A stretch of DNA of 62,323 nucleotides, counting the filler. It is 10 parts of 10 records of this genome, joined end to end, with 100 filler letters (N's around TTAATTAATTAA, not from the genome) between each part and the next. Parts side by side here need not be neighbours in the genome. Positions count along the whole stretch, not along the records: positions 42,045 to 48,304 come from SRR31147125_139144; 9 more parts are not named here. One strand, written 5' to 3'. The notes under the pieces are model-generated. The model saw nothing but the letters and a program-made list of their open reading frames with translations. It was not told where the DNA came from and did not search any database. Position numbers and translations under genes: made by a program. The stretch's first letter is position 1. Every line of letters begins with the position of its first letter. This document shows positions 1 to 62,323 of this stretch, piece by piece.

Positions 1-465
1 TTCTTCGTTGAGATACGATTTGTAGAACAAGTCACTGGAGTCCATTGACGCTCATTTAGAGAGTCTTTTCCCATATATTAGCATCTCAAAAAGGTGGCAT
101 GAGGGAAGTCGAGGGTAAGGTTCATCGTTGTTTTCAGTGTTTCAGTTCAACAAAAACGGTGACAAGCTGGTGGCAAAACGCCATAGCACACCGTTGTCAC
201 TGGTGTTGGCATTGCTAGGAACAGCTTGATGAACGGTAACTGCCGGACATTCCGTAGAATATCGAAAAAGTCGCTTACAGCCCTGCTTGTCCCGCAACTC
301 TTCGCAAAACCCCGGTTCTTAATAGAACGTAATGTGATCTGCATGCGACGGGACACTCAGATCAATCTGGATCCTTGTTTCTCGCTCACCGAATGTTATA
401 CTATCATGCAATTCTCGTTTCGGGACACGAAAGCAGATCACATCTGCCAACGGAGAAGCCTTCAA

Positions 466-1143
466 ATGACAGATAGCACGGAAACCGGGCTTCGTACAAT
501 AACCATCTCCAGAGCAGCTCTTCTGGAGAAAGCTGATCGATTTGTCGGGGCAACAACAACAAGCGAGCTGGAAGATTTGAAAAGTGCTGAGAATCGTACG
601 GTATGGCATCAGTTCTCTGACCGTTATCGTCCGATGATCATGAGTTTCGCCAGAAACCAGTTCGGTTTTTCAGAAGCCGACGCAGATGAGGCTGCCCATA
701 CCACCATGATTGCTTTCGCCGAAGAATACCAGAAAGATAAGTATAACCGTGATAAAGGCAGACTTCGCAGCTGGCTTTTCGGGATCGCGAAAATGCAGAT
801 TAAAAACCTCATCAGAAAACAAGCCCGGATTCGAGAACGTCAGGAACCTTGTGACAACTCAGGATCAGCGTTTTTTGACCAGATCGCATACTCGGATGAT
901 GAACTGGAGAAAGCCTGGGAGGAAGAATGGCGCCAGGCGATTTATCGCCAGTGTATTCAGGAGGTTTCTGTGCATTTCGACAAGAAGACAATAGAGGCTT
1001 TCGACCTGTTCGCAAGACAGGGTATGTCGGCAAAAGATGTGGCGGAAAAGCTTGATATGTCTCAAAATGCAGTCTTCCTTGCGAAACACAAGATTCTAAA
1101 GCGTATTCGCGAACTGGTACCATTAATGGAAGAAAACTGGTAG
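466..1143 (+). CDS. ECF-family RNA polymerase sigma-70 factor (planctomycete, kinase-associated type)
   Basis: Region 2 (VWHQFSDRYRPMI...YNRDKGRLRSWLFGIA) and region 4 HTH (SAKDVAEKLDMSQNAVFLAKHKILKRIRE). ATG 466 follows a GGAGA RBS; the ORF-track start at 226 is probably too early. Confidence 0.92.
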   Translation: MTDSTETGLRTITISRAALLEKADRFVGATTTSELEDLKSAENRTVWHQFSDRYRPMIMSFARNQFGFSEADADEAAHTTMIAFAEEYQKDKYNRDKGRLRSWLFGIAKMQIKNLIRKQARIRERQEPCDNSGSAFFDQIAYSDDELEKAWEEEWRQAIYRQCIQEVSVHFDKKTIEAFDLFARQGMSAKDVAEKLDMSQNAVFLAKHKILKRIRELVPLMEENW

Positions 1144-41944: not shown

Positions 41945-42894
41945 NNNNNNNNNNNNNNNNNNNNNNNNNNNNNNNNNNNNNNNNNNNNTTAATTAATTAA
42001 NNNNNNNNNNNNNNNNNNNNNNNNNNNNNNNNNNNNNNNNNNNNCAATGAGGTCAAAGAATCTGAGACTTAGCACCATGCCAGAAAGTCCTTCTGAAAAG
42101 TCCCACAAGCTACCGTGGTCAGAAGCCACGGGAACCGAATCTTTCGAGGTGGAGCTATTCCGCCCTCAAATTTAAGATATCATTACGATCCTGACCGGAT
42201 CAAGAACATTGTGAAGCAATCACACTTATTGCACCCAGGGTGTAATAAGTCCTCTCCCATGCCCCTACCCAAACGGCGGATTTTGCAAAATTAGCACTTT
42301 TCAAAAAACTGGTAAGTGCTGGCCGTGAACACTCCGATACCCGCACCTGATACGATTCTGGCCGGTGGTAGTTTTTCGGATTTCAAATCCAGAAACTATT
42401 CGATATGGAGACGGGCGCAGTTTTGCGCCGGTTGAAGTGTGGTACCTGGCAGGGGTGGAAATCAGTTTCCTATCCCCTCTTTTTTGAATGAGAGGGTCGG
42501 GGATCTCATCATTGAAGGAGCCCCCCTCCAACTGCTCGGTAGATTTTTACCGGATGGTATCGATGCTCTCCAAATCTGGATAATGCCGTGATCACCGGAT
42601 CATGTGGCCGTGGGTCCTCCCTGTGTGATCCGTTCGGATGGTCGAGCATATGCAATGGGCAAAGCTACCCCCATGCATGAGCATCATACCCACGGGCCGG
42701 AGAAGTGAAGCTCAATGGCCTGCCGATCCACAGCACCCAGACCATCAAATCCGCGGAATCCGAGTTTTTCCCTTTCCTGCTCGGTATCCCCATGGTGGTG
42801 GTTGTTAGAGTTTAAAATCGGTCAAGATGGCTGTCAATGAAGGAAAGTAGGTGGTGACCGGGCTCAATGGTGCTTGAAAACCAAAGGGTGGGGA

Positions 42895-42994
42895 TCGCAC
42901 CCCCTACAACCGGCTTACCCCTCAGTCCCAGGTTATCCCGCTGCTCAACCGAGGCGTAGAACGCATCCATGTCTATATGAATTATCTTCCGCAT
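42895..42994 (-). pseudogene. dinB: DNA polymerase IV 5' remnant
   Basis: [30 protein letters not shown], then similarity is lost and a stop follows at 42812. Confidence 0.85.
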
Positions 42995-43228
42995 ACTGAA
43001 GCAGGATTCTTCCAAAAGACTGTTTGGTAAGGAAAGGGTGAGCCGGTGGCTAAGTTTTTGGGACACCATCAGTTTTTGGTTGGAGTTAGATAATTTTTTT
43101 TCTAAATTATAGTATTTTGTAATTTTTTATGATAAAGTTTTAAATAGATGATAATGGGATTTTTTATACAAAAGAAATATAAGTGCTGATAGGTGATTTT
43201 TTTATGTATTTCAACGAGTATCTAAATA

Positions 43229-46200
43229 ATGAGGGTAAGCGAAATGAGTCATGCGATAAGAATCATCATGGTATTGATAGGCTTGATTATGCCGATGAAG
43301 AGTTTTGGGGAATCACTATATCTTGTGCATAGTAAGGGGACTGAATATCCCTGTTGCAAAGACCCCTGGTCTGATCGTCTACCAATGCGATATATTGGAT
43401 ATGTAAAATGTCCAGATCTTGAGAGTTTATTTGAACCACTTTCTCCATCGTGTGACATTTTGTACGAAGGTTCTTTGGTAAATATATCCTGGTTCGAGAC
43501 TGTTGCACTAGAAAATGATAGTATTTCTCATGACTATCTAGGAACCCCTCCTTTTTATTATTCTTGCGGCAATACTGATAATTGTAGACCGAGATTTACT
43601 TTTTTCGCTCAATATTCTCAATCTTTGATTGATGACTTATTTTCAGATTCTCGGGTATATTTTCGATTTTATCAAGATTGGAATGAATTCGCGTATGATA
43701 ATACTTATTCTCAATCAGAATTTGATGATTTACTTATCGAAAGACAAGAGAGCATTGATGACTGTGATTGTGACGGTTTCGCTATACTTACTGAAGGATA
43801 TTGTGAAAGCACATCTGGAGAGGAAGAGCTAAAATACATTGAGTATAAGGACTGTAAAAAAGGAGATATAATAGGATATGGTCCAAAAGATCATGTCACA
43901 AGATTTGAATATCCTACTTCCACTTGTTCATTGACTTCAAATGATATTGATTCTTTTCGGACTCAAATTAATAATTCCGATCCTTGCGCCAATCAAATGG
44001 TGCTCAGTTATAATTTGGGAACAGGTCCAAATTCGTATGGTTTGCCGACTAATCCTATTGAAAATTCTTCCAACACTTGTAATCCAATCAATTTTGCCAC
44101 CGGCAATAAATACAGACAAGAGAGAGATTTTTTTATTCCTGATTTGGGAATTGGGCTAAAATTTACGAGACATTACAATAGTCAGAACGATAGCATTTCT
44201 TGTCTCGGTTATGGTTGGACAGGGTCTTTTTCAGAGTCTCTCAGTGTATCGGAAGACAACCTTATTCTTCATCAATCTGACGGTGCTGACGTGGTTTTTA
44301 CCTACAATGACGATCAGAATTATTTTGTTTCCGAAACAGGCCAGAGCAGAATAATTGAAGCGATCGGTGAAAATTGGCGTTTGACCGAACCCAATTCCAT
44401 TATTCTTGAATTTGATATTGAAGGGAAGTTGATCCAAATCCTTGACCGTAATGGGAATTATCTGGTTGTACAGTATGATGGAAGCAATCTTTCATCCGTG
44501 GAAGATAATTTTGGAAGAAGAATCGATTTTTCTTATAATGAAGACGGATTGCTTGAGTTTTCAGACACTCCGATCGGTAGGTTTGAATACCGCTATGATC
44601 AAGTGGCCAATTTGATTCTGGTAATCAAACCGGACTCGACACAGAGAAGCTATTCGTACGAGGCCCCCCATGACTCTCACAACCTGACAGGGATTACGGA
44701 TGCCAATGGGCTTCAGGCTCTCTATGAATATGATGACCAGGATCGGGCGATTTCGTCTGAACGCATTGGCGGTACGGATCGCTTAACGGTCAGTTATGAA
44801 GATGGGTTAACCCGAACAATTACGGATTCGGCAAACAATACCATTTCTTACGAACTTCAGGCAGAACATGGTATCGGTCGCATTCGTTCATCCTCTGGTT
44901 CATGTAGCAGCTGTCCGAGTGCTTCGGGAACGACATATGAAATGGATGATCGTCTAAACATTCAAAGCAAAACAGATGCTTTGGGGAATGTGACGCTATA
45001 CACATATGACAATAAGGGGAATGTCCTTATCAAAACCGAAGCCTCTGGAACCTCGGAAGAACGAACAACTCTTTATACATGGCATCCGGAATTAAATCTC
45101 ATCACCTCTGAAAGCCGTGAAAGTGTTTCTAACCCGGGACAAATTAATAAAATTGAGTATGAGTATGATGAGAATGGCAATTTAATTCGTCAAATAGAAA
45201 CCGGCTTTTCAGAAACAGAAACAATTTCTTCCGAAATCCTATATGCCTACAATGATTACGGGCAAATCATCCAGGTTGATGGCCCCCGTACAGATATTAC
45301 CGATATCTCCTCTTACGAATATTACCCCAACAATTCGTCAGAAGGGCTGAACCGGGGAATGCTGAAAAAGAGCATCGACTCGATCGGTAGTGAAATTTTG
45401 TATGGAGATTACAATGCCTGGGGAAAACCCGGAACCATCACGGATCCAAACGGTACGGTCACAACCCTTGGTTATGATGTCATGGGCCGCCTGCTTTCGG
45501 AAACGACTTCGACTTTAGGCATCACCAAATCATATGAATACAATCCGGTCGGACAACTTACAGCCATACATTTACCTGAGAATATCGATATCCTTTACAC
45601 TTACGGCAACAATGGGTTGTTGGAAAAGATGACGGATGGAAAGGGTAATTATATTCACTATTTTTATGATAGTCGAGGCAATCGGACTCGTGAGGAAATC
45701 CGAGATGCTCAAGGCACTCTAAAAAGATTCAAAGATTTTGAATATGACAGTTTCTCTCGGTTAAAAACCATCACCCACCCGGATGGCACTGACGAAGAAC
45801 GGATTTACGATGACAACCATAATTTGATCCGGAGTGTCAATGCTGATGGTAACTCCGTTTCCTATGCTTATGATGCCTTGAATCGGCTCATTCAGACCAC
45901 TCAACCCAATAATGTCATCACGCTATTCTCTCATGACAATCATGACAACTTGATTCAAGTTACAGATGCGGAGGGCAGAATCACCGGTTTTAACCATGAT
46001 GACTTTGGAAATCGGATTTCCGGTGTATCCCCGGATACCGGCACGACTTCATATAGTTATGATAACACCGGCAATCTCATTTCAAAGGTCGATGCCGGCG
46101 GAAATGTTGTCTCTTATGCCTACGACGCTTTGAATCGGATTACAGCCATCCATTTTTCCGATCAGGATATCCTTTATACGTGGGATCAAGGCCCCAACGC

Positions 46201-48304
46201 CCAAGGAAGAGTATCAGAAATCAGTGACGCATCGGGTAACACCATCTATGGGTATGATCCGCTGGGACGTGTAATTCTGGAAGAAAAAGAGATTCAAAAT
46301 CTTTCGTTTGCAGTCGAGTATTCCTATGATGATAACGGCAACGTCACCGACATGGTCTATCCTTCAGGCCGTATTGTCAGCTATGAGCTGGATAGCGTTG
46401 GGCAAGTTGTCAAGGTCACGACTGAGAAAGACGGTGACGTACAAATCTTGGCTGAAAATATCACTTATCTTCCCTTTGGGTCTACCACAGCGGTCGATTA
46501 CGGAAATGGCTCTGCTCTGACATATGGGTTTGATCAGAGGTATCGTCTTACCAATATTTCCGACGAAAATTTGCAGGACTTGAGCTATGCATATGATCCG
46601 GTAGGCAATATCACATCAATCACGGATGGAATAGACCCATCGAAGAGCCAGGCGTTTGTCTACGACAACCTATACCGCCTGATGGACGCCGACGGCGTTT
46701 ATGGAAGTCTCGGATACACCTACGACAAAACCGGTAATCGTTTGACCCGCACTGAAAACGGGCAAACCGATACCTATCTTTATGAATCCGGAACAAGTCA
46801 TCTGATCGAAATTACCGGTGTCGAGCCTCGAGCTTTCTCTTATGATGCCAACGGCAATACCGTAGGCTCGGGGTCTCAAGAGCTTGTTTACAGTCAAAAC
46901 AACCGGCTCATCAGTGTTTCGAATAACGGAAACCTCGTCAAAGAGTATGTCTATAATGCCTTGGGACAGCGTGTCATCGAGCACATCGGGGAGACCACAA
47001 CCATTTTCCTATACGATCAAAGTGGTAATCTGATTGCCGAGAGCGATGATGGGGGAAATTCATTGCGGGAATACGTCTGGTTGGGCAACCGCCCACTGGC
47101 GCAGATTGCTTTTGGCGATGGCACTTCCAATCCTGATCCCGAATCCCTGATTTTGGACAATGACGCCCCCGCCACTCAATATATCGGTACCTGGACGAAC
47201 TCCACAGTAGTTTCCGGCCATGAGGGTGCAGACTATCGGTATCATGCCGCCAATGGCGCTTCCCCGGAAACCATACAAATCGACAATGGCGATTCCGGTT
47301 TCAACGTCACCGGAACCTGGGAACATTCCACGGCTGTCAACGGACATGAGGGAACCGACTATCAGAAGCATATGCCCAACGGCTCATCGCCGGAGGCTCT
47401 GCTGTTTGACAACGGCGGTGTTGGCTTCAATGTCACCGGCACCTGGACTCATTCCATCGTTGTAGATGGTTACGAAGGATCAGATTACCAATATCACGCC
47501 TCAAATGGCACTTCACCGGAGGCGACCATAATCGACAATACCGATCCCGGATTTGCCGTGATCGGCAACTGGTCCACTTCAACCAACACTTCGGGTTATG
47601 CAGGAAGCGATTACTTAGCCAAAGCTGCCGGAAACGGCGATGAGACCGCCACCTGGACTTTTACAATAGACAAAGCCGGAGACTACCATATTTTGGCCCG
47701 CTGGAGCGCCCACGCCAACCGTGCCACCAATGCGCCGTATACCATCAGCCATGACGACGGCTCAGGGAGCGCCGTAATCAGCACAGTCACGGTTAGCCAG
47801 CAGCAAAACGGCGGACAAAACAATCTATTGGGCACCTACAGTCTGGAACCGGGCACCCTGTCGGTGACCCTGTCGAACGATGCCGATGGCTATGTCATTG
47901 CCGATGCCATACAGATAGAACCGGTCGATGCAGCGCCCAACACCGCCACCTGGACGTTGGAGATCCTCAGCGCCGGAGACTACGACGTGTATGCCAAGTG
48001 GCCTGCGCATCCCAACCGCGCCGGAAACGCACCCTTCACGATTCATCATGCGGACGGCGAGAGTACGGTATACGTCGATCAGCAGCAAAACGGCGGAGAA
48101 TACATTCAACTGGGTACCTATACGTTCAATGCCGGGAGCGATCACTCCGTCACTCTGACCGATCAGGCAGACGGCTATGTTATCGCCGATTCCATCCTAA
48201 TTGTTCCAATCGGTGCCCTGCCCAATACCGCCACATGGGCACTCAATGTACCTTCAGCCGGTGAATATGAAATTTATGCCAAATGGACGTCCCATTCCAA
48301 CCGT
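43229..48304 (+). CDS. Secreted RHS/YD-repeat protein with Cys-rich N-terminal domain and nested golvesin-like (CBM-fold) domains (3' partial)
   Basis: Signal peptide; DUF6531-like NPINFATGNKY/FTRHYNS/LGYGW; many YD repeats (YTYDNKGN, YAYDALNR, SPDTGTTSYSYD); EYVWLGNRPLAQI followed by golvesin-like motifs (DN..W..S..G..G.DY; ATW...GDY...W...NRA...NGG...LGTY...VIADAI). Confidence 0.92.
47144..47644 (+). repeat. Four 126-nt (42-aa) coding repeats: N-terminal halves of golvesin-like domains
   Basis: Units start at 47144, 47270, 47396, 47522; consensus xxxDNxxxGFxVxGxWxxSxxxxGxxGxDYxxHxxNG(SPE). Confidence 0.9.
47645..48304 (+). repeat. Three (last truncated) 95-99-aa coding repeats: C-terminal halves of golvesin-like domains
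   Basis: Units start with TATW at 47645, 47942, 48227. Confidence 0.9.
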
Positions 48305-48404: not shown

Positions 48405-48596
48405 AAGACCCTCAAGATCACCCCCCAGATCAACGAGGAACGCATGGTGCGCCTGAATCTTTCCATTGAGGAAGCCACCACCCTGTTCGAATCCAAGAAA
48501 GGCAAGATCGATCAACTGCGCGAATGCCAGATCAACCTCCACCGGGGCGGCCTGGACGCGATCGAACCGCCGTCCATGGAAGCGGAGTTGCCGTAG
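48405..48596 (+). pseudogene. 3' end of a secretin (GspD-like) gene, apparently internally deleted
   Basis: KTLKITPQINEERMVRLNLSIE resembles the secretin barrel motif, but the expected later strands (LGGL, P.LG.IP.LG.LF, FLTP) are absent before the stop. Confidence 0.45.
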
Positions 48597-48686
48597 CCCC
48601 GTGTCCCGGCATGGGCGAACGCCTTGGGGCCAGCTTTAACATCCGATCAACGAAGGGGATGCCCACAGGATGGAATTAAGCGTTGG

Positions 48687-50015
48687 CTACGATTCAGCCG
48701 GCGTCCCGGCAACATCGTGCCCCCGAGGTGCCGCCAGCCCCGTATAGCGCCCCGGATCTTTCAGCGCCTGCCAGTCGACGGGGTGGTCCACGGTTTTTGC
48801 GAGGACATCGACGACATGGATGCCGGTCCGGCGCGACTCGAGGCAGGCACGTTTCACCAGGGCCTGGGCATCCGGTTTGGGCATGTAGGTTGACAGGGCA
48901 AACACCGCTGCTTCGGCCAGGGCTTGGCCGTTGGACTGATCGAGGGTGGCACGCATCTGCCGGACATTCACCTCGATGGTCGAAAAGAGCAGCGCTGCAT
49001 GTTTCAGGGCACCGGCGGCAGCCGAGACCATTTGGGGCAGGGTCAGCCATTCAAGCATCCAGCCGGATCCTCCCCGTTCGTGTTCCTGGATCTGGGCCTG
49101 ATGCATGATGCCCAGCAGGCCGGCATTCATACGGGTGAGCGTAACCAGCACCTCGGCCCCGATTGGATTGGATTTCTGGGGCATGGTGGAGGAACCGCCG
49201 CCGGAGGAAAAGCGAACCTCGGCGATTTCGGATTGAGCCATGAGCAGCAGATCCTGGCCGATTTTGCCCAGGCTGCCGGTAAGCATGGAGAGCCAGCCGG
49301 CGAACTCAACCATGCCATCCCTCTGGCTGTGCCATGGTGTCCTGGGAAGACCAAGATTCAATTCCTCGGCCAGCTGCCGGGCCGTGTCAGGGCCGTTATC
49401 TCCCATGGCGGCCAGGGTTCCGGCGGCGCCCCCCAATGAGAGAACCAACAGCCGCGGCTTGATCCGTGACAAGCGTACCAGGTGGCGCCGCATCGGTTCG
49501 GCCCACAGGTTGATCTTATGGCCCAGGGTCGTGGGAATGGCCTGCTGCCACCTTGCCCTGGCCACCATGAGGGTCCTCTCGTGAACGGTGGCCAGCGCCT
49601 GCATGGTTTCCAAGAGCTTGCCAATCCGTTTTTCCATTGAATCGATGGCCTGTCTCAATCGCAGAACCAGCGCGGTATCCACGATGTCCTGGCTGGTAGG
49701 CCCCCAATGCAGGTAGTAACGCCCCTGTTTATCGATGACCGCCCGGGCGGCATCGAGCAAGGCGGGCACGGGGACCCCGGATTCCGCCGTGCCGCGGGAA
49801 AATTCCGCCGGATCGGGGGCAAAATCCGCAAGGCCGTCGGCAATCTGTTGGTAGGCGATGCGTGGGATGCTACCGTTGCCGGCCTGGACCTTGGCCAGGG
49901 CCACCTCGACCTTTAACATGGCGGCAATGGCCGCTTCATCGGAGAAGCAGGAAATCACGTCGGGATCGCAGAAAAGCATGGAAAACAGCGGTGAATCAAA
50001 AGGGCTGATGGACAT
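48687..50015 (-). CDS. pcaB: 3-carboxy-cis,cis-muconate cycloisomerase
   Basis: HWGPTSQDIVDT, GGAAGTL, signature GSSTMPQKSNP, HERGGSGWMLEW; pca context. Confidence 0.92.
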   Translation of the reverse strand: MSISPFDSPLFSMLFCDPDVISCFSDEAAIAAMLKVEVALAKVQAGNGSIPRIAYQQIADGLADFAPDPAEFSRGTAESGVPVPALLDAARAVIDKQGRYYLHWGPTSQDIVDTALVLRLRQAIDSMEKRIGKLLETMQALATVHERTLMVARARWQQAIPTTLGHKINLWAEPMRRHLVRLSRIKPRLLVLSLGGAAGTLAAMGDNGPDTARQLAEELNLGLPRTPWHSQRDGMVEFAGWLSMLTGSLGKIGQDLLLMAQSEIAEVRFSSGGGSSTMPQKSNPIGAEVLVTLTRMNAGLLGIMHQAQIQEHERGGSGWMLEWLTLPQMVSAAAGALKHAALLFSTIEVNVRQMRATLDQSNGQALAEAAVFALSTYMPKPDAQALVKRACLESRRTGIHVVDVLAKTVDHPVDWQALKDPGRYTGLAAPRGHDVAGTPAES

Positions 50016-50190
50016 GTTAACCTCTACTTTAGTTTCAGCCAGGACGATTTATATCTTAAGCCGAGTGGGAAAAAAGTTTTCGCCCCCACACCTCGAACTC
50101 GCATCATGACGTGTTCCTCGTAAATGAAACCGCACGACCTTGCAGCCCTGTTCGGATCGATTCTTGCCCGGCGGTAAAAATAAAATAACA

Positions 50191-51021
50191 CTATTCGGCC
50201 GGCGGCAGCGAGAGCATCCGCCGTGCCTCGGCCGGTGCGGCCGGCCGGCGATCGTATGTCTTGCACAGGTCGGCAAGACGCGCCACCAGTTCGGCGTTGC
50301 CGGTGGCCAGCCGGGTTTTATCGAAGCGGACGTTGTCCTCCAGGCCGGTTCGGCAATGACCGCCCATCTCCAGGGCCCAGTGGTTGATCTGCAACTGGCT
50401 GCGGCCGATGCCGGCGGCAGTCCAGGTGGCGTCGGGGAGCAGCTTCAGCTGGGCGACTTCAAAGGCCAGGATATCCTTTTCCGGCGGCAGCGCATTTTCC
50501 AGGCCAAAGACAAATTGCACGTGCAGGGGCCGGGCAAGCTCGCCGGCCTTGGCCTTGCGCACCGCCGTATAGAGCATGGCCAGGTCGAAGACCTCGATTT
50601 CCGGCTTGACCCGGCGAGCCAGCATCTCACCGGCCAACTGGTCGACCAGCTCCGGCGGGTTCTCGTAAATCATGGTGGGGAAATTAACCGAACCGGTGGT
50701 CAGCGATGCCATATCCGGCTTGATATACAGCATGGCGCCACGCTCATGGGCGGCCCGGCCCCGGCCGCCGGTGGAAAACTGGACGATCATGCCCGGGCAC
50801 TGCTCGCGCACCCCCTCGAGCACGGCCTTGAATTTGGAAGGATCCGATGAAGACGACTGGTCTTCCTCCCGAACGTGAACATGAACGATCGACGCCCCGG
50901 CGTCAAAAGCCTCACGGGTGGAGACGATTTGCTCCTCGACGGTGATGGGCACGGCCGGGTTGTGCTCCTTTCTGGGAAGCGATCCGGTGATGGCCACGGT
51001 TATGATACATGGCATGGGCAT
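50191..51021 (-). CDS. Beta-keto acid cleavage enzyme (BKACE/Kce, DUF849)
   Basis: IITVAITGS...NPAVPIT, HVHVR, QFSTGG, PDMASL, GGHCRTGLEDN. Confidence 0.93.
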   Translation of the reverse strand: MPMPCIITVAITGSLPRKEHNPAVPITVEEQIVSTREAFDAGASIVHVHVREEDQSSSSDPSKFKAVLEGVREQCPGMIVQFSTGGRGRAAHERGAMLYIKPDMASLTTGSVNFPTMIYENPPELVDQLAGEMLARRVKPEIEVFDLAMLYTAVRKAKAGELARPLHVQFVFGLENALPPEKDILAFEVAQLKLLPDATWTAAGIGRSQLQINHWALEMGGHCRTGLEDNVRFDKTRLATGNAELVARLADLCKTYDRRPAAPAEARRMLSLPPAE

Positions 51022-51083
51022 GGAGACAAGCCTTATCTGTTTACCGGTTGGCGGTGGATCGGCAGACGGTTGGAAAAATCCGC

Positions 51084-51662
51084 TCAGACATCGAAGAACA
51101 CGGTTTCCGACGTGCCCTGCATATGAATGTCGAATCGGTAAACCGTTCCGCCGGGCGTCTCTTCCCGCGTGGCGATCAACGTCTGCCGGCGTGCCTCATC
51201 GACGCTGCCCAGCACCGCATCGCCGGCGTTCAGCGCATCCTCGTCGGAAAAGTAGAGGCGCGTGTGGAGGTGGCTCAGCAGCCCTCTCATGAACACCATT
51301 ACGTTGAGGTGCGGCGCCTGGCCGTCGGCCGTGGCGCCGGGTTTGATGGTGTCGAACCAGAACCGGTTGTGGGGGTCGGTGCCGGTGCCCACGCGTCCGA
51401 ATCCGGTGAACCCGTCCTGCCGCGAGGCGTCGGGGTATCGCCCGGTTGCATCGGCCTGCCATACCTCGATCATGGCATCGGACACAGGCACGCCGTCACC
51501 GTCGAGCACCCGGCCGGTAATCCGGATGCGCTCGCCCTGAATCTTCTCGTCCACCATCTGCGAAACTGCGAGACTGGCAAAGTCATACCCGTATTGCGTG
51601 GGCGTCAGGGTGTAGGCGAAATAAGGACCGACGGTTTGCGAGGGGGTTTGCTCACTGCTCAT
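51084..51662 (-). CDS. pcaG: Protocatechuate 3,4-dioxygenase alpha subunit
   Basis: QTPSQTVGPYF, EVWQADATGRY, QAPH...RGLLSHLHTRLYF, FDIHMQG..ETVFFDV. Confidence 0.95.
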   Translation of the reverse strand: MSSEQTPSQTVGPYFAYTLTPTQYGYDFASLAVSQMVDEKIQGERIRITGRVLDGDGVPVSDAMIEVWQADATGRYPDASRQDGFTGFGRVGTGTDPHNRFWFDTIKPGATADGQAPHLNVMVFMRGLLSHLHTRLYFSDEDALNAGDAVLGSVDEARRQTLIATREETPGGTVYRFDIHMQGTSETVFFDV

Positions 51663-51695
51663 GAGTCGTTTCTCCTTGTGGATCGGCAATGGAAG

Positions 51696-52391
51696 TTACT
51701 GTTGCACCGGCATGGCGGCCTTGCCGCGCAATACGATGTCGAAAACATAACCCAGGGCGAAATCGGGTTCGGTCACCTCGATGGAAAAGCGGCTGACCAG
51801 CCGATGCCGGGCGGCAGCGGGTGCGCCTTGGAAGATGGGATCCAGATCCAGGAGCGGATCGCCCGGGAAATACATCTGCGTCACCAGCCGGGTAGCCATG
51901 ACCGGTCCCAGCAGGGAAAAGTGGATGTGGTTGGGCCGCCATGCGTTGTGATGATTCTTCCAGGGATAGGCACCGGGCTTGACAGTATAGAACCGGTAAT
52001 TGCCGTGTTCATCGGTGACGCAACGGCCGGCCCCCATGAAATTAGGATCCAGCGGTGCATCGTGGTTGTCGACCACGTGAATATAGCGACCGGCGGCATT
52101 GGCCTGCCATACCTCAATCAGGGTATTGGGAATCGGGTGGCCTTTTTCGTCGCGTACCTGACCGGTGACGACGATGCGCTCTCCAAGGGGCTGGCCGTTG
52201 ACGCGCGCGTTTCGGGTGAGGTCATGGTCCAACGGCCCAAGGCACCGGGGATCGAACGCCGGACCGGTGGTTTCACAGCCGCTCTGCCGGATGGGCACCA
52301 GCGATTGGGTGGGCCCCCGCAGATTGGTGGACTTGTAGTCGGAGTAGATCAAGGGGGGATGGCTATCCCAGTCTCTGGGAAGAAACGTCAT
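51696..52391 (-). CDS. pcaH: Protocatechuate 3,4-dioxygenase beta subunit (in frame with upstream pcaC)
   Basis: HPPL...YKST.LRGP, WQANAAGRY, PGAYPW.N..NAWRPNHIHFS (Tyr/His Fe ligands), TQMYFPGDP. Confidence 0.95.
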   Translation of the reverse strand: MTFLPRDWDSHPPLIYSDYKSTNLRGPTQSLVPIRQSGCETTGPAFDPRCLGPLDHDLTRNARVNGQPLGERIVVTGQVRDEKGHPIPNTLIEVWQANAAGRYIHVVDNHDAPLDPNFMGAGRCVTDEHGNYRFYTVKPGAYPWKNHHNAWRPNHIHFSLLGPVMATRLVTQMYFPGDPLLDLDPIFQGAPAAARHRLVSRFSIEVTEPDFALGYVFDIVLRGKAAMPVQQ

Positions 52392-52790
52392 GGCTCGCAT
52401 CCTTTCCGGTGGCGTATCATCGGTTTGCGCGTAATGCGTCCTGGCCACCCTGAATGCCGCATTGGCTGCCGGGATACCGGCGTATACGGCGACTTGCATC
52501 AATACTTCCCTGACATCGGCCATACTGGCGCCGGTGTTGGCCGTGGCCTTGAGGTGAAGGGTCAACTCCTCCAAGTGGCCCAGGCTGGCCAGCATGGCAA
52601 TCGTCAGCATACTGCGTTCGCGGCGGGTCAGGTGGTCCCGCGCCCAGATGGATCCCCAGGCCGTTTCGGTGATGAACCGCTGGAAGTCGGCGTCCAGTTC
52701 CGTCGTGTTTTTCTCCGCCCGGTCCACATGGGCATCTCCCAGCACTGCCCGTCGAACGGCCCGGCCTTTCTCATGGGTCGGCTTGGTCAC
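52392..52790 (-). CDS. pcaC: 4-carboxymuconolactone decarboxylase (no stop before pcaH in this assembly)
   Basis: GAGGAG RBS, GTG start; RRAVLGDAHVDR, FQRFITETAWG, RRERSM, VAVYAGIPAANAAF. Confidence 0.9.
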
Positions 52791-53577
52791 GATTCGTCTC
52801 CTCGATGAATGTGCTGATGGCCGAAGCCAGCTGGTCGGCTGCCTCGATGCAGGGCAAATGCCCGGCACCCTCCACCAGCTCAAAACGGGACCCGGTGATC
52901 AGGGCGCTCATGGATTGCACCAGCTCAGGCGGGGTGGCGCCATCCTCCGACCCGCACAGGCAACGTACCGGCAGTTTCAGGTTGTTGGCGGCGGCCGTCA
53001 GGTCGGCGTCTCGCAGGGCCGCGCAGGTGCCGACGTACCCCTCCACGGGGGTCCGCACCAGCATATTGCGCCAGCCGGCCACGGCTTCGGGCACGGCCTG
53101 GCGGAAGGATTCGGAAAACCACCGTTCGAGAATGGAATCGGCAATACTTTCGATCCCGTGTTGGCGGATCGCTTCGATGCGTTGATTCCACAGATCATCC
53201 GATCCGATCTTGTGGGCGGTATCGCACAGCATCAGCCCATTAACCATGCCCGGTCGGCGGGCCGCCAGTCCCAACGCGATCATGCCGCCCACCGAAACGC
53301 CGCAAAACAGCGCCTTCTCGACGCGTATATGGTCCAGCAGGCCGGCCAGATCGTCAATGTGGTTGTCCAGGGTGTAGGGTGCCGGCGGTGCATCGGAAAG
53401 GCCGTGCCCTCTCTTGTCGTAGCAGATGCTTTGTATCCTGCCGCCCAGGCAGTCGAGCACACCATTCCAAATTCTCAGGTCCGTACCCAGAGAGTTAAGA
53501 AAAACCACCAGCGGCGCACCGGGATACCCCTTGCGCCGGTAGTGAATATGAAGTCCGTCGATCAAATCAACCTGCAT
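52771..53577 (-). CDS. pcaD: 3-oxoadipate enol-lactonase
   Basis: NSLGTDLRIW, YDKRGHGLS, GVSVGG, RDADL, GSEDGATPP, GHLPCIE. Confidence 0.93.
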   Translation of the reverse strand: MQVDLIDGLHIHYRRKGYPGAPLVVFLNSLGTDLRIWNGVLDCLGGRIQSICYDKRGHGLSDAPPAPYTLDNHIDDLAGLLDHIRVEKALFCGVSVGGMIALGLAARRPGMVNGLMLCDTAHKIGSDDLWNQRIEAIRQHGIESIADSILERWFSESFRQAVPEAVAGWRNMLVRTPVEGYVGTCAALRDADLTAAANNLKLPVRCLCGSEDGATPPELVQSMSALITGSRFELVEGAGHLPCIEAADQLASAISTFIEETNRDQADP

Positions 53578-53701
53578 AGAAAATGCCTCCGGGTAAAATC
53601 GACACCATTCGACCGGACTGACCGTTTCAGCCGTTTTAAATCACAATCAGCATAACATCTTTTCGGCATTCCTGATATTGCCAGGAATGGAAACACTCAG
53701 T

Positions 53702-53932
53702 TCAGGCAAAGGGTTCGAAGGGCAGTCCCACATAATTCTCGGCCATAACCGTCTTGGCGGCGGTGGAACCGGCCAGGTAGTCCAGTTCGGCAATCTGAAG
53801 GCGGTATCCCAGCGGATCGTCACCGGGTTCGTGCATCAGCGAGGTAAACCACCATGGGAAATGGAGCAACTGGGAAAGCAGCAGCCCCGATGGTCCTGAT
53901 CCGATGATGCCAACCTGGGTTCGTTTCTTCAT
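53702..53932 (-). pseudogene. pobA: 4-hydroxybenzoate 3-monooxygenase with large in-frame internal deletion
   Basis: RTQVGIIGSGPSGLLLSQLLH (PobA N-terminus) joined directly to FPWWFTSLMH...QIAELDYL...AENYVGLP (PobA C-terminus); 76 aa versus ~390 aa normally. Confidence 0.88.
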
Positions 53933-54443
53933 ATCCGCGACCCTGGTTAAGGGAACCGATCCAATGGGAATCCGCCGCCGGAGGCCAGCGGCACTCAAAA
54001 AACGAGGCAGCCGACCTGTTCAGCATGGCGAACCACCATCGCCTTGCCGCACAATGGCCCACCCTCCCCCAAAAAAGTATCAGACATCCTCATGCGTGGT
54101 GTTTGCGAAAAATAGGAATCTCGACAGACATTGTCAAGAAACGACCGGGGCAAACCGTTGCGGCCAACAGGATGAACAATTCCATGGGTTCTTTATCTGG
54201 AGATTGCCCCATAAGCGACGCGAGCTGATTATTTTGCCGGGCGCGGCGGCTATTTCTTCGTCCTGAGCGGTCATCACCATTTTCGATCAAGTTTTTGGCT
54301 GCTTGTGCGATAATTATTCTATGAACCGTCGCGCCAGACCATTCAACCCAGGCATCATCGATTGAAGATAGCCGCAGCGACCATCGTCGCCGAACGAATA
54401 CCAGGAAACACCGTGGTGCAGACATCCGATGGGGGCAAATAAA

Positions 54444-54785
54444 ATGGACCGCAGCGTTGAACATGTCAATGAAAAAAGGGGGGTGCCACGTCATCCCGCG
54501 GAGATGGAAATCGTTTATCAGCCGTATTCCAGCAGTGGATCCGTCCGCCAGTCAATAGGGATGCTGCGCAATTATTCAAATGAGGGCATCTATATTGAAG
54601 CGCCCCATGGATACAAGGCCGGCACCATCCTGATCATCCGCACCGCCCACTGCGCACCATCATCTTCCTCGATTGTTTGCGGAGAAGGGTTGCGAACCAT
54701 ATGCCTGGCCGAAGTCAAATGGCGGCAGGAACTGCCTGACCCCGAAGTGGCCAGCTTTGGGATGGGGTTGAGTTACCTTACTTAG
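54444..54785 (+). CDS. PilZ-like domain protein
   Basis: EKRGVPRH (RxxxR), NYSNEGIYI ([D/N]xSxxG), AEVKW, FGMG. Confidence 0.7.
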   Translation: MDRSVEHVNEKRGVPRHPAEMEIVYQPYSSSGSVRQSIGMLRNYSNEGIYIEAPHGYKAGTILIIRTAHCAPSSSSIVCGEGLRTICLAEVKWRQELPDPEVASFGMGLSYLT

Positions 54786-54952
54786 GGACCGTCCACCACC
54801 GACCGATTTGCCCGCTATCGGCGGTATACGAAAAATTTTATCCTCCTCGCAAAACAGGCACGGCGCCATAGGGCATTGACAGTTCCATCGCCTTCCGCTA
54901 TGGCCCCTTTCTGAACAACCCGACCACTTCCTGCGTAAAAGGGGAGACCTGA

Positions 54953-55495
54953 ATGCCAGTCGCTCAGCCAACCGTTATTGTGGTGACTTCTCCGCCGCAC
55001 ACCGGCAAATCATCGTTGATCGCCCGCTATTTGGAATTGTACCGTCAACATAATCCTCACCTGGCCGGAATTCTTGCCGAAGGATTGTGGAAGAACAATC
55101 AGCGATCGGGGTTCAACCTGGTCGACTTATCATCCGGAGACCGCGTGCCCCTGGCCGCTCGCTGCACGCCGCACGGCCGGGCGCGGATCAGTTTTGAATT
55201 CAACCCGCAAGGGATCGAGGCCGCCCGGATCGCCTTGAGCGCGGACCGCTGCGCCACGGCGGATCTTATCGTCGTCGATGAGGTGGGCAAACTGGAGGTC
55301 ATGGGCGACGGATGGGCGCCGCATCTTGCCCCCCTGCTCGCATTGCCCGGTAAAACGCACATCTGGGCGGTCAGGCACGGCCTGGTGGACGCGGTTGCCC
55401 GGCGATGGGGATTTACCCCGCACGCCGTGGTGGACGCCAGGTCCCAGGATGCCTTGAACAAACTGATCGCCGCCTGCGCGCTGTTTGACGGTTAA
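54953..55495 (+). CDS. NTPase_1/THEP1-like (DUF2478-like) P-loop protein
   Basis: Degenerate Walker A SPPHTGKS, RSGF, Walker B IVVDEVGKLE. Confidence 0.78.
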   Translation: MPVAQPTVIVVTSPPHTGKSSLIARYLELYRQHNPHLAGILAEGLWKNNQRSGFNLVDLSSGDRVPLAARCTPHGRARISFEFNPQGIEAARIALSADRCATADLIVVDEVGKLEVMGDGWAPHLAPLLALPGKTHIWAVRHGLVDAVARRWGFTPHAVVDARSQDALNKLIAACALFDG

Positions 55496-55520
55496 ACCGA
55501 CAACAGCAACTCATCGGCGG

Positions 55521-56589
55521 TTACTTTCCCGCCTCAAACGCCGCGCCCACGATGGCCTGGGCCTCTTCCTGAATGCGCTTGAGGTGGGCCTTGCCCTTGA
55601 AACTTTCGGCGTATATTTTATAGATTTCCTCGGTGCCCGAGGGCCGGGCGGCGAACCAGCCGTTTGGGGTGGCCACCTTCAAGCCGCCAATGGGCGCATC
55701 ATTTCCCGGTGCCCGCGTGTGCGTGGCAATGATCGGCTCGCCGGCCAGTTGCGTGGCGGTGATCATCGCGGCGGAAAGCCGCTTGAGCGCCGCCTTTTGC
55801 GCCATGGTTGCCGGTGCATCGATACGCTCGTAGACGCAAGCGCCGAATTGCTCCTCCAGGGACCGGTAGAGTTCTCCCGGATCCCGGCCGGTTCTGGCCA
55901 TGATTTCCCCGGCCAGCAGAGCCATGATGATGCCGTCCTTGTCCGTGGTCCAGACCGATCCATCCCGGCGCAGAAACGACGCGCCCGCGCTTTCCTCGCC
56001 GCCAAAGGCAATGCTGCCGCCCATCAACCCATCCACGAACCATTTGAAGCCCACAGGCACTTCACAGAGCCGGCGATCAAGATGCGCCACCACCCGATCG
56101 ATGATCGATGTGGAAACCAGGGTCTTGCCCACGGCGGCCGATGCGGGCCAGTCAGGCCGGTTCTGGAACAGATACCAAATGGCCACGGCCAGGTAATGGT
56201 TGGGGTTGAGCAACCCGGTGCTTTTGGTGACGATGCCGTGGCGGTCCACATCCGTGTCGTTGCCGAAGGCGATGTCGAACTTGTCCTTGAGCATGATCAA
56301 CCCTTGCATGGCATAGGGTGACGAGCAGTCCATGCGAATCTTGCCGTCCTTGTCCAGGGCCATGAACCCGAATGTCGGATCCACCACCGGATTGACGATT
56401 TCAATGTTCAGTCCGTGGCGCTCGGCGACCGTAGCCCAGTAATTCACCGCCGCTCCGCCCAGGGGATCCACGCCGAGTTTGAGGCCGGACGCGGCGATGG
56501 CATCCATGTCGACCACCGTGGCCAGGTCGTCCACGAACGGGGTGATGTAGTCATAGGCGTGGGTGGTGTCGGCTTTGAAAGCCTTCTCG
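55521..56589 (-). CDS. pgm: Phosphoglucomutase (5' partial)
   Basis: [59 protein letters not shown]. Confidence 0.96.
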
Positions 56590-56689: not shown

Positions 56690-56714
56690 GATCCCGGATC
56701 AAGTCCGGGATGAC
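56690..56714. repeat. REP-like palindromic repeat fragment at contig start
   Basis: GATCCCGGA-TCAAG-TCCGGGATGAC hairpin with GATGAC tail; likely cause of the assembly break. Confidence 0.6.
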
Positions 56715-56811
56715 AAAGAGTTAAACCGGAGTCCAAAGAGATAATCCGGGATAACATGAAATCACTCTAACCTATTGACTATCCCTTCAACATAAGAGAT
56801 AAAAGTTATAT

Positions 56812-57795
56812 ATGAATAATGATTATCTTAATGACAACCCCCTACATGTACTTGTCGTCGATGACGACAGAACTAATTTAATTTTAATTGAGAAGATACT
56901 CAAAATTAATAACTTTGATGTAACCTGTGTTCAATCAGGTCGAGAAGCTCTCGAAGAGATAAAATCAGATCGTTTTGATATCATACTTCTTGACGTAATG
57001 ATGCCGCAACTAGATGGCATAGAAGTATGTAGAAGAATTAAAGACAATGAGTCGACAAGACTAATCCCCGTCATTATTATAACAGCCCTCACAGAAAAAG
57101 ACGACAAACTTAAAGGAATTGAGGCGGGATGCGATGACTTCCTGACTAAACCAATCGACAAAACAGAACTAATTGCTAGAGTCAAGGCCCTCGGAAAAGT
57201 AAAACGTCTTAATGACGATCTTGAAAAGGCTGAATCTATTATTATGAGTCTAGCGAGAGCGGTAGAAGCGAAAGATGATACAACCGGTAATCACTGCGAC
57301 CGTCTAATAGATCTTTCACATGCTTTTGGAAGGTATTTAAACCTAAGTAATCATGATCTTAAAATTTTAGAAAGAGTCTCTGTTCTCCACGATGTTGGGA
57401 AAATAGGGATGCCAGACTCCATCCTTTTGAAACCAGACAAACTTACTGAAGAAGAATGGATAACAATGAGAAAGCATGCAGAGCTTGGTGAACAGATATG
57501 TCGTCCCCTAAGATCACTTAAGGGAATATGTCCAATTATCAGACATCATCATGAAAACTGGAACGGCTCCGGTTATCCTGACGGCCTAAAGGGTGAAGAA
57601 ATTCCATATCTCGCAAGAATGTTTCAGATTGTTGACGCCTTTGATGCCCTAACAATGAAAAGACCATATAAAAAGGCCTTCTCCACTACCGACGCAATCA
57701 ATATTCTTAAAAGCGAAAGTGAAAAAGGCCTCTGGGATCCAGAACTAATTTTAGAGTTTATCAATTTTATTTCTTTGCATCTAAAAAAGGCTTAA
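56812..57795 (+). CDS. Response regulator with HD-GYP cyclic-di-GMP phosphodiesterase domain (RpfG-like)
   Basis: REC (VVDD, LLDVMMP, FLTKP); [24 protein letters not shown]. Confidence 0.95.
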
Positions 57796-58522
57796 GCAGA
57801 TCAATCGGAATCGGAAAGAGAGTCGTTGTATTATTCTCACTCGATATCTCTGTTAGCGTTTGAAGATATCTCATCTGCAAAGCCATTGGATGAGCTTCCA
57901 TTTTCTGCGCAGCTTCAACTAACTTAGTAGCAGCCTGAAATTCACCCTGTGCACTAATTATTTTTGCTCGTCTTTCTCTTTCAGCTTCGGCCTGCCTTGC
58001 CATTGCTCGTTTTAATTCTTCTGTAATATCGACATGCTTAATCTCAACATTTGCAACTTTGATTCCCCAAGGATCGGTCTGTTTGTCCAGAATCTCCTGA
58101 ATCTGTGAGTTGATTTCATCTCGTTCTGACAAGAGATCGTCTAGCTCCCTTTCACCAACAACACTTCTCAATGTTGTCTGACTCATCTGTGATGTAGCAA
58201 ATCCGTAATCTTCAACTTCTGTCACAGCCTTGTTAGCATCCATGACTCTGAAGTAGACAACAGCATTAACATGAACTGAGACGTTGTCTTTTGTAATGAT
58301 ATCTTGAGGAGGAACGTCTAAAGCTATTGTTCTTAAATCAATTCTCACAATCTTATCGATTGGCTTGAATACAAAGATAATACCAGGCCCTTTGGGTTTG
58401 GATAAAAGGCGACCAAGTCTAAAAATAACTCCTCTTTCATACTCCTTTAAAATCTTGATACAGGACAAAAGATAAATAACAAAAAGTCCTATTAGAATTA
58501 ATGGAACTGGCAACTGAAACAT
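57767..58522 (-). CDS. Slipin (stomatin/SPFH) protein
   Basis: [62 protein letters not shown]. Confidence 0.95.
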
Positions 58523-58532
58523 ATTTTCCTCC

Positions 58533-59890
58533 TTATGATTGATTATCTAGTTTTTTTACAATTAATGTCATCCCCTCAAAGTCCGAAACAGCAACCTTGT
58601 CGTATTTAAACAAGTTTGTCTCCCCCTTGGCATTCCATATTTCTCCGTGCACAAAAACCTTTCCTTTTTCACCACTCCACTTTCTAACCTCTGCTATAGA
58701 GCCGATCAGACCTTCTTTTCCCGTCACCGCTTTTTTCCTATGAAGTTTTGCAACAAGCGTTACGAGGAATATCGTAATCACCAATGTAGCCAGAGTAAAG
58801 CCCAACACGAGTGGAAGAGAGACTCTCATAAATTCATACGGTGAATCAAAAAGCATCAGGGAACCAAGCAAGACAGAAATAATCCCCCTAGCGTCAATAG
58901 TCCATAGCTTACAATTTTCACTTCCATAATAAAGAGAATTATTCCAAGTGCAATCAAAGCAACACCAGCATAATTGGCATCAATTAAATGCAATCCATAA
59001 GAGGCAACTACTAGCGATATAAAACCTGCTATTCCAGGAAAACCAATACCTGGATGCGTGAACTCAAATAGAAGTCCATAGAAACCAAGCATCAAAAGTA
59101 TATAAGCAATATTAGGCATAGCCAAAACTGAAAGGATTCTATATCTCACATTTTTTGGAATCTCTACTACTTGGACATTCTTTGTATCAAGAACGACCTC
59201 ACCTACTGAGGTTTCAACTTTTTTCCCATCAATTTTTTTCAAAAGGTCATCGACATCTTTCGCAATCAGATCGATCACATTCCTTTTGAGAGCCTCCTTG
59301 GCAGTAATCGACGAACTCTTAACAACTGACTTCAAAGCCCAAGAGACATTGCGCCCTCTCTTCTCAGCAATAGTGGTTACCCAAGCTTTTGTGTCATTAA
59401 GAATTTTCTCCTCCATCGGTTCAGGAGCATCATCTCTTCGTTTATCTTTCTTTAGTTTTTCAGTATATTGATCAAGTTTATCACTAAATGATTTTTTGTC
59501 TCCCAAGGTTACCGGATGAGCAGCGCCAATATTGGTGGATGGAGCCATTGCAGCTATATTTGCAGATAAGGTTATAAAGACCCCAGCAGAGCCCGCTCTG
59601 GAGCCCTCTGGAGCGACGTAAACAACCACTGGAACACTTGATGCCATTATCTCTTTAACAATCTCTCTGGTCGTCGTGAGAAGACCTCCGGGAGTATCGA
59701 GCTGAATAATAAGCCCTAGAGCCTTTTCATCTTCTGCTTTTTTTAAGGCATCCAGAAGATACTCACTTGAAACTGGATTGATAACATCTCCGTTGAGCTT
59801 AACCATGTAAATAATATTACTCTCTGATGCATGACTATTAACAAAAGAAAAGGTTAACAGTAAGACTAAGATAAATAGAATCTTTCTCAT
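58533..59890 (-). CDS. nfeD: NfeD long form, membrane-bound ClpP-class protease (frameshift at C-run 58884-58888)
   Basis: [29 protein letters not shown]-terminal OB fold [12 protein letters not shown]. One added base gives [14 protein letters not shown]. Canonical partner of slipin. Confidence 0.92.
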
Positions 59891-60098
59891 CTCTCCTCCC
59901 AGAATTCACGTTCTTAGCATATGTTTTATCGATATGTCATTATCTTTCCGTTAAGAACCAGCAATTCAGGAATAACAACATCTCCTGTCTTCAAAATACC
60001 TTTTGGCAAATTAATTCATACATAATTTTGGTCGTTGACAGAGATCAGCGGCTAAACTATAGATTCTCTATTCCGAAAAAACCCTAACAGGAGGTATT

Positions 60099-62099: not shown

Positions 62100-62122
62100 C
62101 TGATATTTACTTTTAGTATGTT

Positions 62123-62156
62123 AAAAGCCGGGTTTGCTAATGCAGACCCGGCTTTT
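62123..62156 (+). terminator. Intrinsic terminator
   Basis: AAAAGCCGGGTTTGC-TAAT-GCAGACCCGGCTTTT. Confidence 0.85.
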
Positions 62157-62278
62157 CTTATTGCGAAATGAATTTGTAGTGGTTCTTCGGAGACGCAGAT
62201 TTTCCTTCGGTAAATCTGCATAGTATCTTGTAAGATCTGAGAATCGCTTCCAGCGCCCCTCAAATCTAACAATCTACT

Positions 62279-62301
62279 AAAAAACCGCCATAAGGCGGCT
62301 T
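62279..62301 (-). terminator. Intrinsic terminator after the terminal tRNA fragment
   Basis: Minus strand AAGCCGCC-TTAT-GGCGGTTTTTT. Confidence 0.6.
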
Positions 62302-62307
62302 ATTATG

Positions 62308-62323
62308 TCGGGGTGAGAGGATT
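62308..62323 (-). tRNA. 3' end of a tRNA, probably tRNA-Pro
   Basis: Minus strand AATCCTCTCACCCCGA resembles the T-arm/acceptor end of bacterial tRNA-Pro; followed by a terminator. Only 16 nt visible. Confidence 0.45.

Follow-up and report, generated by a model that had tools for sequence, protein, structure and literature searches.

Split CBM35-like domains, probably nested within one another, in the shell region of an RHS-family protein

The 62,323-nucleotide window analyzed here is built of ten contigs, the 9 joints between them each being an N...TTAATTAATTAA...N spacer, and contains, on the contig at positions 42045-48304, an RHS-family gene with an unusual insert near its truncated 3′ end. 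The product of this gene (P0001) carries four copies of the N-terminal half (A) of a single Golvesin_C domain, related to carbohydrate-binding modules (CBMs) of family CBM35, followed by two copies of the C-terminal half (B) and the first 26 amino acids (aa) of a third; this layout is confirmed. The architecture is, with high confidence, nested, each domain being inserted in the same loop of the preceding one in the order A1-A2-A3-A4-B4-B3-B2-(B1), as indicated by the sequence anatomy, the bracket-like grammar of the halves in related proteins, the constant insertion site and the pairing in AlphaFold models. The complete interpretation, namely that the nested CBM35-like array serves as the glycan-binding arm of an RHS toxin, appears likely; the glycan-targeting role of the arm, taken by itself, seems to us an evenly balanced proposition on the present comparison.

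Organization of the insert

The open reading frame (ORF) at 43229-48304 translates into 1692 aa with no stop before the N run. Its features, including those of the insert, are as follows.

43229..48304, plus strand: RHS-family ORF, open at the 3′ end, where the contig stops (48304); family assignment from Pfam (see below)
43229..43309, plus strand: signal-peptide-like hydrophobic N-terminus MRVSEMSHAIRIIMVLIGLIMPMKSFG, judged by eye from the translation and not by a predictor
44081..44299, plus strand: DUF6531 (PF20148), residues 285-357, Pfam E 2.8e-19
44300..47068 (approximate limits), plus strand: RHS/YD repeat region (shell), from Pfam RHS_repeat and YD repeats seen in the translation
47069..47107, plus strand: last RHS strand before the insert, EYVWLGNRPLAQI; the (E/Q)Y(V/I)(Y/W)L.G.P(L/V)A motif also precedes the array in homologues
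47108..47143, plus strand: entry linker AFGDGTSNPDPE, 12 aa, from the translation and comparison with homologues
47144..47269, plus strand: A1, N-half (three strands) of the outermost domain, 42 aa; its partner B1 lies past the contig end
47270..47395, plus strand: A2, N-half of the second domain, 42 aa; its partner B2 is partial
47396..47521, plus strand: A3, N-half of the third domain, 42 aa, predicted to pair with B3
47522..47644, plus strand: A4, N-half of the innermost, contiguous domain, 41 aa, part of a full-length Pfam Golvesin_C match
47645..47941, plus strand: B4, C-half of the innermost domain, 99 aa, from Pfam and a sequence match to 6f2p_A (E 1e-19)
47942..48226, plus strand: B3, C-half of the third domain, 95 aa, from sequence comparison and an AlphaFold2 (AF2) model
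48227..48304, plus strand: B2, C-half of the second domain, of which the first 26 aa are present before the contig stops

The A halves share 45-62% identity with one another at the protein level, and B4 and B3 are 62% identical (58/94). In tblastn comparisons the A halves recover each other with E values from 1e-5 to 2e-15, B4 and B3 match at 2e-30, and the B2 stub is found at 1e-6 to 3e-8. On the Golvesin_C profile, the A unit covers the first third and the B unit the remainder. The match of this family (PF25275) to P0001 is highly significant (E 3.8e-72, 241 bits against a cut-off of 31.6), and its sole full-length alignment, covering profile positions 2-131 of 132, falls on residues 1434-1564, that is, on A4 plus B4, the only contiguous A/B pair of the array and the one that Pfam sees as a whole domain. 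All layers retain the motifs of the family, GY.G.DY, RW..H.NRA.NA and DGYVIADA.

Translation, half-by-half alignment and tblastn all bear out the positions that a first-pass annotation had assigned to the A and B halves. The linkers that it distinguished were likewise recovered: NGxSPE leads outward from each A half to the next, PxxAxPN stands ahead of the later B halves on the return path, and GNGDE-TATW joins A to B at the innermost junction. Tandem Repeats Finder detected no DNA-level tandem repeat in the array; accordingly, the A and B copies are old, and assembly stutter can be ruled out as their origin.

Balanced strings of half-domains in related proteins

Relatives of the insert were collected by a word-based search with residues 1295-1692 (442 proteins at E<=0.001 among 8000 scored candidates, 120 of which were taken) and by an exhaustive search of cluster representatives, in which the best 150 of 8454 proteins at E<=0.001 were examined. 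Profiles of the A and B halves were built, and the order of halves was read in 249 proteins, with A treated as an opening and B as a closing bracket. The resulting strings are balanced in 170 of the 249 relatives. Plain tandem ABAB arrangements of depth 1 account for 66 of these (amidases, PKD proteins and others), and the other 104 are nested, with depths of 2 (2 proteins), 3 (65), 4 (20), 5 (8), 6 (6) and 7 (3). Equal but variable numbers of A and B halves, which the first-pass annotation had expected of homologues, are thus the rule in these 104 arrays.

Mixed strings of depth at least 2 are balanced in all seven cases, namely A6B3A2B2A2B5 in P0003, A6B1A1B6 in P0012 and P0123, and A3B3A1B1 in four proteins. 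In P0003 (2881 aa), residues 1217-2641 make up a depth-3 stem that bears three sub-arrays, and the balanced string is followed by the RHS core; the array of this protein is a lectin "tree" rather than a rod.

The 79 unbalanced strings include 48 in which the array lies at the end of the protein (fragments, like the A4B3 of the window) and 22 with a gap of at least 40 aa that hides a missed divergent half; the remaining nine are considered below together with the alternative explanations.

Pairing of the halves in structural models

Two AF2 models bear on the pairing. The first, of a homologue, covers residues 630-1262 of P0004, comprising a complete insert with n=4 and short RHS flanks, and was computed from a 23-row alignment; its mean predicted local distance difference test score (pLDDT) is 86.5 and its predicted template-modelling score (pTM) 0.62, with ten-residue block means of 82-97 over the A and B halves. 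Each A half forms three or four strands and each B half seven or eight. When solved structures are aligned to this model, single CBM chains bridge distant segments: 7ay3 (CBM36, 124 aa) aligns over 119 residues with a root-mean-square deviation (rmsd) of 3.0 and Z 10.7 across 88..494, which is exactly A2+B2, and 2dck over 114 residues (rmsd 2.7, Z 10.5) across 131..395, which is A3+B3; 1w99 covers 126..400 and 2zew 128..397. For most solved CBM chains, the alignment falls on the innermost domain, which is contiguous and whose best match is 6f2p_A, the C-terminal module of a xanthan lyase (Z 23.3, rmsd 1.3 Å, 134 residues aligned, 40% identity).

The second model was made from the window's own, 3′-incomplete sequence (47009-48304) and has a mean pLDDT of 85.8. 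Here 4qb2 (CBM35) aligns over 124 of 129 residues (rmsd 2.8, Z 12.5) across 129..401, which corresponds to A3+B3, and five single CBM chains in all (4qb2, 2vzp_A, 5f7u_A, 9h6f_A and 6kka_A) span 126-129..398-401, the same pair. Confidence in this model is about 95 in A3, A4, B4 and B3, about 87 in A2 and about 70 in A1, where strands are lost; in the complete homologue A1 reaches about 89. The drop in A1 fits nesting because A1 is left partnerless by the contig end and A2 retains 26 aa of its partner. The pairings predicted in the first-pass annotation are in this way reproduced for A3 with B3 in the window model and for both A2 with B2 and A3 with B3 in the n=4 homologue model, and we infer that of A1 with B1 by elimination and from pLDDT.

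Across the models, CBM35 chains align with Z 12-14 and rmsd 2.5-2.9 over 119-128 residues, so that, as far as models can tell, the fold is a jelly roll. Recursive nesting of one and the same fold is indicated both by the models, in which CBM chains skip the inner domains, and by the bracket grammar of the sequences. By the CBM35 topology, the split loop would lie at that end of the sandwich which also holds the termini, and this would leave free the loop-end binding sites of all layers.

A constant insertion site

In the 8 homologues that were read by residue, the strand (E/Q)Y(V/I)(Y/W)L.G.P(L/V)A leads into the array, and the array is followed by (F/Y)Y.H.DHLGTP, then DPIGL.GG.N.Y.Y and finally unrelated C-terminal tips. 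This RHS site, directly before the xDHLGTP core, is occupied in 79 of the 104 nested arrays (67 placed by regular expression and 12 by eye, the latter having motif variants such as ADQLGTP), and DPxG lies no more than 200 aa behind the array in 64 of the 67 placed by regular expression. In P0008, the RHS core family PF03527 starts 6 residues past B1, and solved Rhs proteins align only from the PF03527 start (for example, 7q97_A 1184-1290 to query 1694-1797). The continuation that had been foreseen for the window gene after its last B half, with an RHS core, DPxG and a variable tip, is therefore seen in homologues and not in the gene itself, because the contig ends within B2; the core (PF03527), DPxG and toxin domain of P0001 would lie beyond position 48304.

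Nested arrays also occur elsewhere: 23 of the 104 form the C-terminus of Ig-like/TSP3/FN3 proteins and 2 the N-terminus of large PKD-RHS proteins. In the P0014-P0040 group (e.g., P0020, 1663 aa), an A4B4 module makes up the C-terminal ~545 aa of Ig-like/TSP3/FN3 proteins; the record names in this group include Thiodiazotropha and Sedimenticola. The nested module moves between protein contexts.

The host protein of the window belongs to the RHS-repeat family by its PF05593 matches (E 1.3e-82, 11 stretches), and its Pfam scan returned three families only, with no PAAR or VgrG-type domain. A hydrophobic start comparable to that of P0001 was counted, from printed values, in 27 of 39 full-length nested-array RHS homologues. 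A complete homologue locus with n=3 (L001), reached via P0086, lies on a 4.35-Mb chromosome record, where nine ORFs at distances of up to 8 kb from the RHS gene were tested and Pfam detected no type VI secretion system (T6SS) family in them. The window contig holds 1.2 kb upstream of its own RHS ORF, and neither P0001 nor L001 showed the marks of a T6SS effector. At L001 13861-14535 (plus strand), a 224-aa ORF that has no Pfam match overlaps the 3′ end of the RHS gene of this locus and could be its immunity gene. The locus search with the window's own segment gave 78 pattern matches, none of them a relative.

Proposed explanation and its alternatives

According to the explanation favored here, a CBM35-like Golvesin_C beta-sandwich would be split after its third strand, with the next domain inserted whole in that loop; A_i and B_i would fold together at every level, and each level would be held by two short covalent links, NGxSPE on the way out and PxxAxPN on the way back. 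Owing to these double links, the start and the end of the array would coincide at any depth, and with coincident ends an insert of 400-1000 aa could fit the tight hairpin that links the "PLA" strand to the "YY.H.DHLGTP" strand, at which PF03527 starts, leaving the shell unopened. The arm would then stand outside a Sec-exported RHS toxin as a multivalent, carbohydrate-binding structure that holds the toxin container on glycans of the target cell or another surface, its depth n (4 here, 3-7 in relatives) setting reach and valency. Past the contig end, the window gene would complete B2, add B1 and then run on into the RHS core, DPxG and a toxin tip.

The view of the arm as external and glycan-binding is based on the CBM family to which the insert belongs, the signal-like starts, the absence of PAAR and T6SS families from the Pfam results, and the decoration of the shell of SGS1 (see below). 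Putative carbohydrate binding by the insert is a property known for distant members of the family: as described in the part of PMC9166713 consulted, a 609-glycan array showed Cbeg4 and Cbeg5 of Bacteroides to bind a defined N-glycan motif, and they share the CBM6-CBM35-CBM36_like_2 domain with golvesin and a xanthan lyase. A broader and distinctly tentative proposal is that self-insertion at a fixed loop might yield rigid, doubly linked lectin rods or branched trees, tunable layer by layer and pluggable in any hairpin, by which RHS toxins could reach surface glycans through capsules or S-layers.

Several points weigh against a nested glycan-binding arm. The homologues that stand in for the missing B1, core, DPxG and toxin of the window gene are 46-58% identical. 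The occurrence of 23 C-terminal and 2 N-terminal arrays implies that joined ends are not the sole advantage of nesting. Pairing was judged from aligned ranges (VIA-align) and pLDDT rather than from coordinates or an error map, AF2 knows the CBM fold and may favor the completion of CBM domains, and no structural-alignment row spanned A1+B1 in the P0004 model. Nine of the 79 unbalanced relatives lack an explanation; in one of them, P0103, a divergent fifth A half was recognized by eye. P0002 (A6B5) and P0017 (A4B3) have one half too many with an intact RHS core behind the array; neighboring repeats are near-identical in both, two A halves of P0017 being 100% identical, and the imbalance may mean either that repeats were collapsed in metagenome assembly or that such intermediates are tolerated in evolution. 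Finally, a mirror-tree comparison of A_i and B_j divergence (61 proteins with n=3 and 20 with n=4) did not discriminate between pairings; the near-identical middle layers of P0005, compared by eye, gave no consistent pairing signal either.

An alternative that accepts the nested rod denies it the role of a receptor for target glycans: the rod could be a rigid spacer, an anchor to the envelope or exopolysaccharide of the producer, or a lever that links surface contact to toxin release via the autoproteolytic C-terminal plug. This alternative, in favor of which one can cite the insertion site immediately ahead of PF03527 and the DPxG cleavage region and the terminal position of a like array in large surface-type proteins with Ig-like, TSP3 and FN3 domains, is in our judgment unlikely, given that both the fold and the family are those of carbohydrate-binding modules with relatives proven to be lectins, and that conserved motifs in all layers suggest that each domain keeps a function beyond spacing. 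Pairing that is not nested, such that the A repeats fold by themselves next to incomplete B domains or each A half pairs with the B half of the same rank in file order, would accord with the shortness of the A halves, with the innermost pair alone being contiguous and with the neutral mirror-tree test. Nevertheless, this possibility is very improbable: the last A half is joined to the first B half through a native-length loop of 5-8 aa, whereas file-order pairing needs a link across the whole array; A and B counts are equal at depths 2-7 and the branched strings balance; A2+B2 and A3+B3 each form one CBM fold in the AF2 models; and confidence in the window model falls in A1 and not in A4, the half that file-order pairing would orphan. 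There is hardly any likelihood that the nested order of the window is an artefact in which the metagenome assembly mis-joined or scrambled a repeat region, even though the contig breaks within the array, the contigs of the window vary in GC content (0.39-0.60) and two relatives with near-identical repeats are unbalanced. At 45-62% protein identity and with no DNA tandem repeat, the array offers no identical repeats to mislead an assembler, and 104 proteins show the nested order, their independent sources including the 4.35-Mb chromosome record L001 and records of named strains, among them strains of Pelagibius and Methylicorpusculum.

Relation to known systems

Recursive nesting of a single fold has a precedent in the Si3 insertion of the beta' subunit of cyanobacterial RNA polymerase, in which, according to the text consulted of PMC10895346, eight sandwich-barrel hybrid motifs (SBHMs), four of them assembled from distant segments, form a 150-Å arm in the trigger loop; a 2026 survey (PMC13114784, consulted in part) describes the Si3 of rpoC2 as a six-level recursive insertion. 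As far as the same portion of PMC10895346 goes, Si3 and the RHS array are alike in that one small beta fold is inserted into itself, domains are composed of distant segments, and the host is entered and left through one loop. An elongated arm would be another shared trait. The two differ in fold and host, an SBHM in the trigger loop versus a CBM35-like jelly roll in the shell of an RHS toxin, and, compared with Si3, the RHS array follows strict A^nB^n order with one fixed split loop and fixed outward and return linkers; arrays of the RHS type also vary in depth from 2 to 7 among relatives, have branched forms and provide modules found at protein ends.

Insertion of sugar-binding domains in an Rhs/YD shell is also known. 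In mosquito SGS1, the consulted sections of PMC9935623 report a solved structure of a shell with inserted CBM and lectin domains, in which a CBM and a lectin carbohydrate-recognition domain (CRD), built from segments inserted in the Rhs/YD sequence, sit on the exterior of the shell as putative receptor domains. SGS1 can be grouped with teneurins and TcB as decorated Rhs/YD shells, but it carries single, unrelated domains in the middle of the shell, in contrast to the proteins described here, in which 3-7 self-nested copies occupy the final hairpin ahead of the core.

The modules denoted Golvesin_C or CBM6-CBM35-CBM36_like_2 in the xanthan lyase 6F2P, Cbeg4, Cbeg5 and amidase arrays belong to the same family as the insert; elsewhere they are single or arranged in tandem (ABAB), whereas the copies in the RHS insert are nested. 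With classical Rhs effectors (RhsA 7Q97, Tse5 8CP6, Tre23 7PQ5), the window protein shares RHS repeats and DUF6531, and its homologues share the PF03527 core, the DPxG motif and variable C-terminal tips. Unlike these effectors, P0001 has no PAAR or VgrG-type domain in Pfam and begins with a signal-peptide-like N-terminus, and the solved classical effectors are free of a large nested insert. Among the matched bacterial Rhs structures (7q97, 8h8a, 8qja, 8cp6, 7pq5 and 8uy4), none covers the insert region, which is covered by 6f2p only.

Literature searches on golvesin, nested insertion, CBM and Rhs found no account of a nested array in RHS or CBM proteins, and the remark of the first-pass annotation that no description is known for RHS proteins holds in these searches, with Si3 as the precedent for the nesting principle. 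In the text of the PMC13114784 survey as consulted, the words "carbohydrate", "galactose-binding" and "jelly" are absent, and its data tables could still list such proteins. Thus, recursive same-fold nesting and the insertion of CBM or lectin domains in an Rhs/YD shell are known already; apparently new are the fold and the host, together with the strict A^nB^n order, which varies in depth and can branch, and the wide occurrence (104 proteins of only 249 examined).

For protein architecture, the arrays represent very regular recursive self-insertion in more than 100 proteins, with conserved layer identities and balanced branches, and offer a tractable system in which to study the folding of such chains and the evolution of paired gains in two half-domains that lie apart. 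With respect to toxin biology, they would define a large, signal-peptide-bearing subgroup of RHS proteins with a lectin-type arm at a fixed site beside the release machinery, and the arm points to glycans as a targeting cue. In annotation, domain callers report these regions as partial "Golvesin_C x n" hits and leave the stacked A halves unexplained, which a grammar-aware rule would fix. For design purposes, a doubly linked multi-domain rod with coincident ends could be a ready insertable scaffold.

Identity and evolution of the layers

In the 95 pure A^nB^n proteins with n>=3, each half was assigned its nearest neighbor in another protein. The neighbor belongs to the same layer in 76 of 95 cases for the outermost A, 84 for the innermost A, 90 for the outermost B and 82 for the innermost B. 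By this comparison of sequences, the layers are orthologous between proteins, which implies that the architecture is ancient and that it is mostly the middle layers that change in number. The branched strings observed are what tandem duplication of one contiguous piece would yield. For the deeper linear nests, we infer that the A run and the B run gained halves in step, or else that the innermost loop received a whole domain.

Composition and other contigs of the window

The GC content along the RHS gene rises from 0.39 in the first 1.8 kb through 0.45 in the RHS repeats to 0.53-0.56 in the nested insert. The rise could mark a separately acquired module or merely reflect a composition rich in Gly, Ala, Thr and Asp. 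Among the contigs of the window, GC content spans 0.387 (56690-62323) to 0.602 (48405-56589); given this wide spread, the bin may mix genomes, and the neighboring contigs accordingly tell little about the organism that carries the RHS gene. No A or B halves were found by tblastn in the other nine contigs, a search that did not extend to pieces of the RHS core or toxin.

On the minus strand at 12711-16615, two adjoining ORFs match FlgK in Pfam, one of 598 aa aligning to profile positions 2-351 (the N-terminal part) and one of 703 aa to positions 304-437, the C-terminal end only. These ORFs could be an unusually long or split pair of hook-associated proteins.

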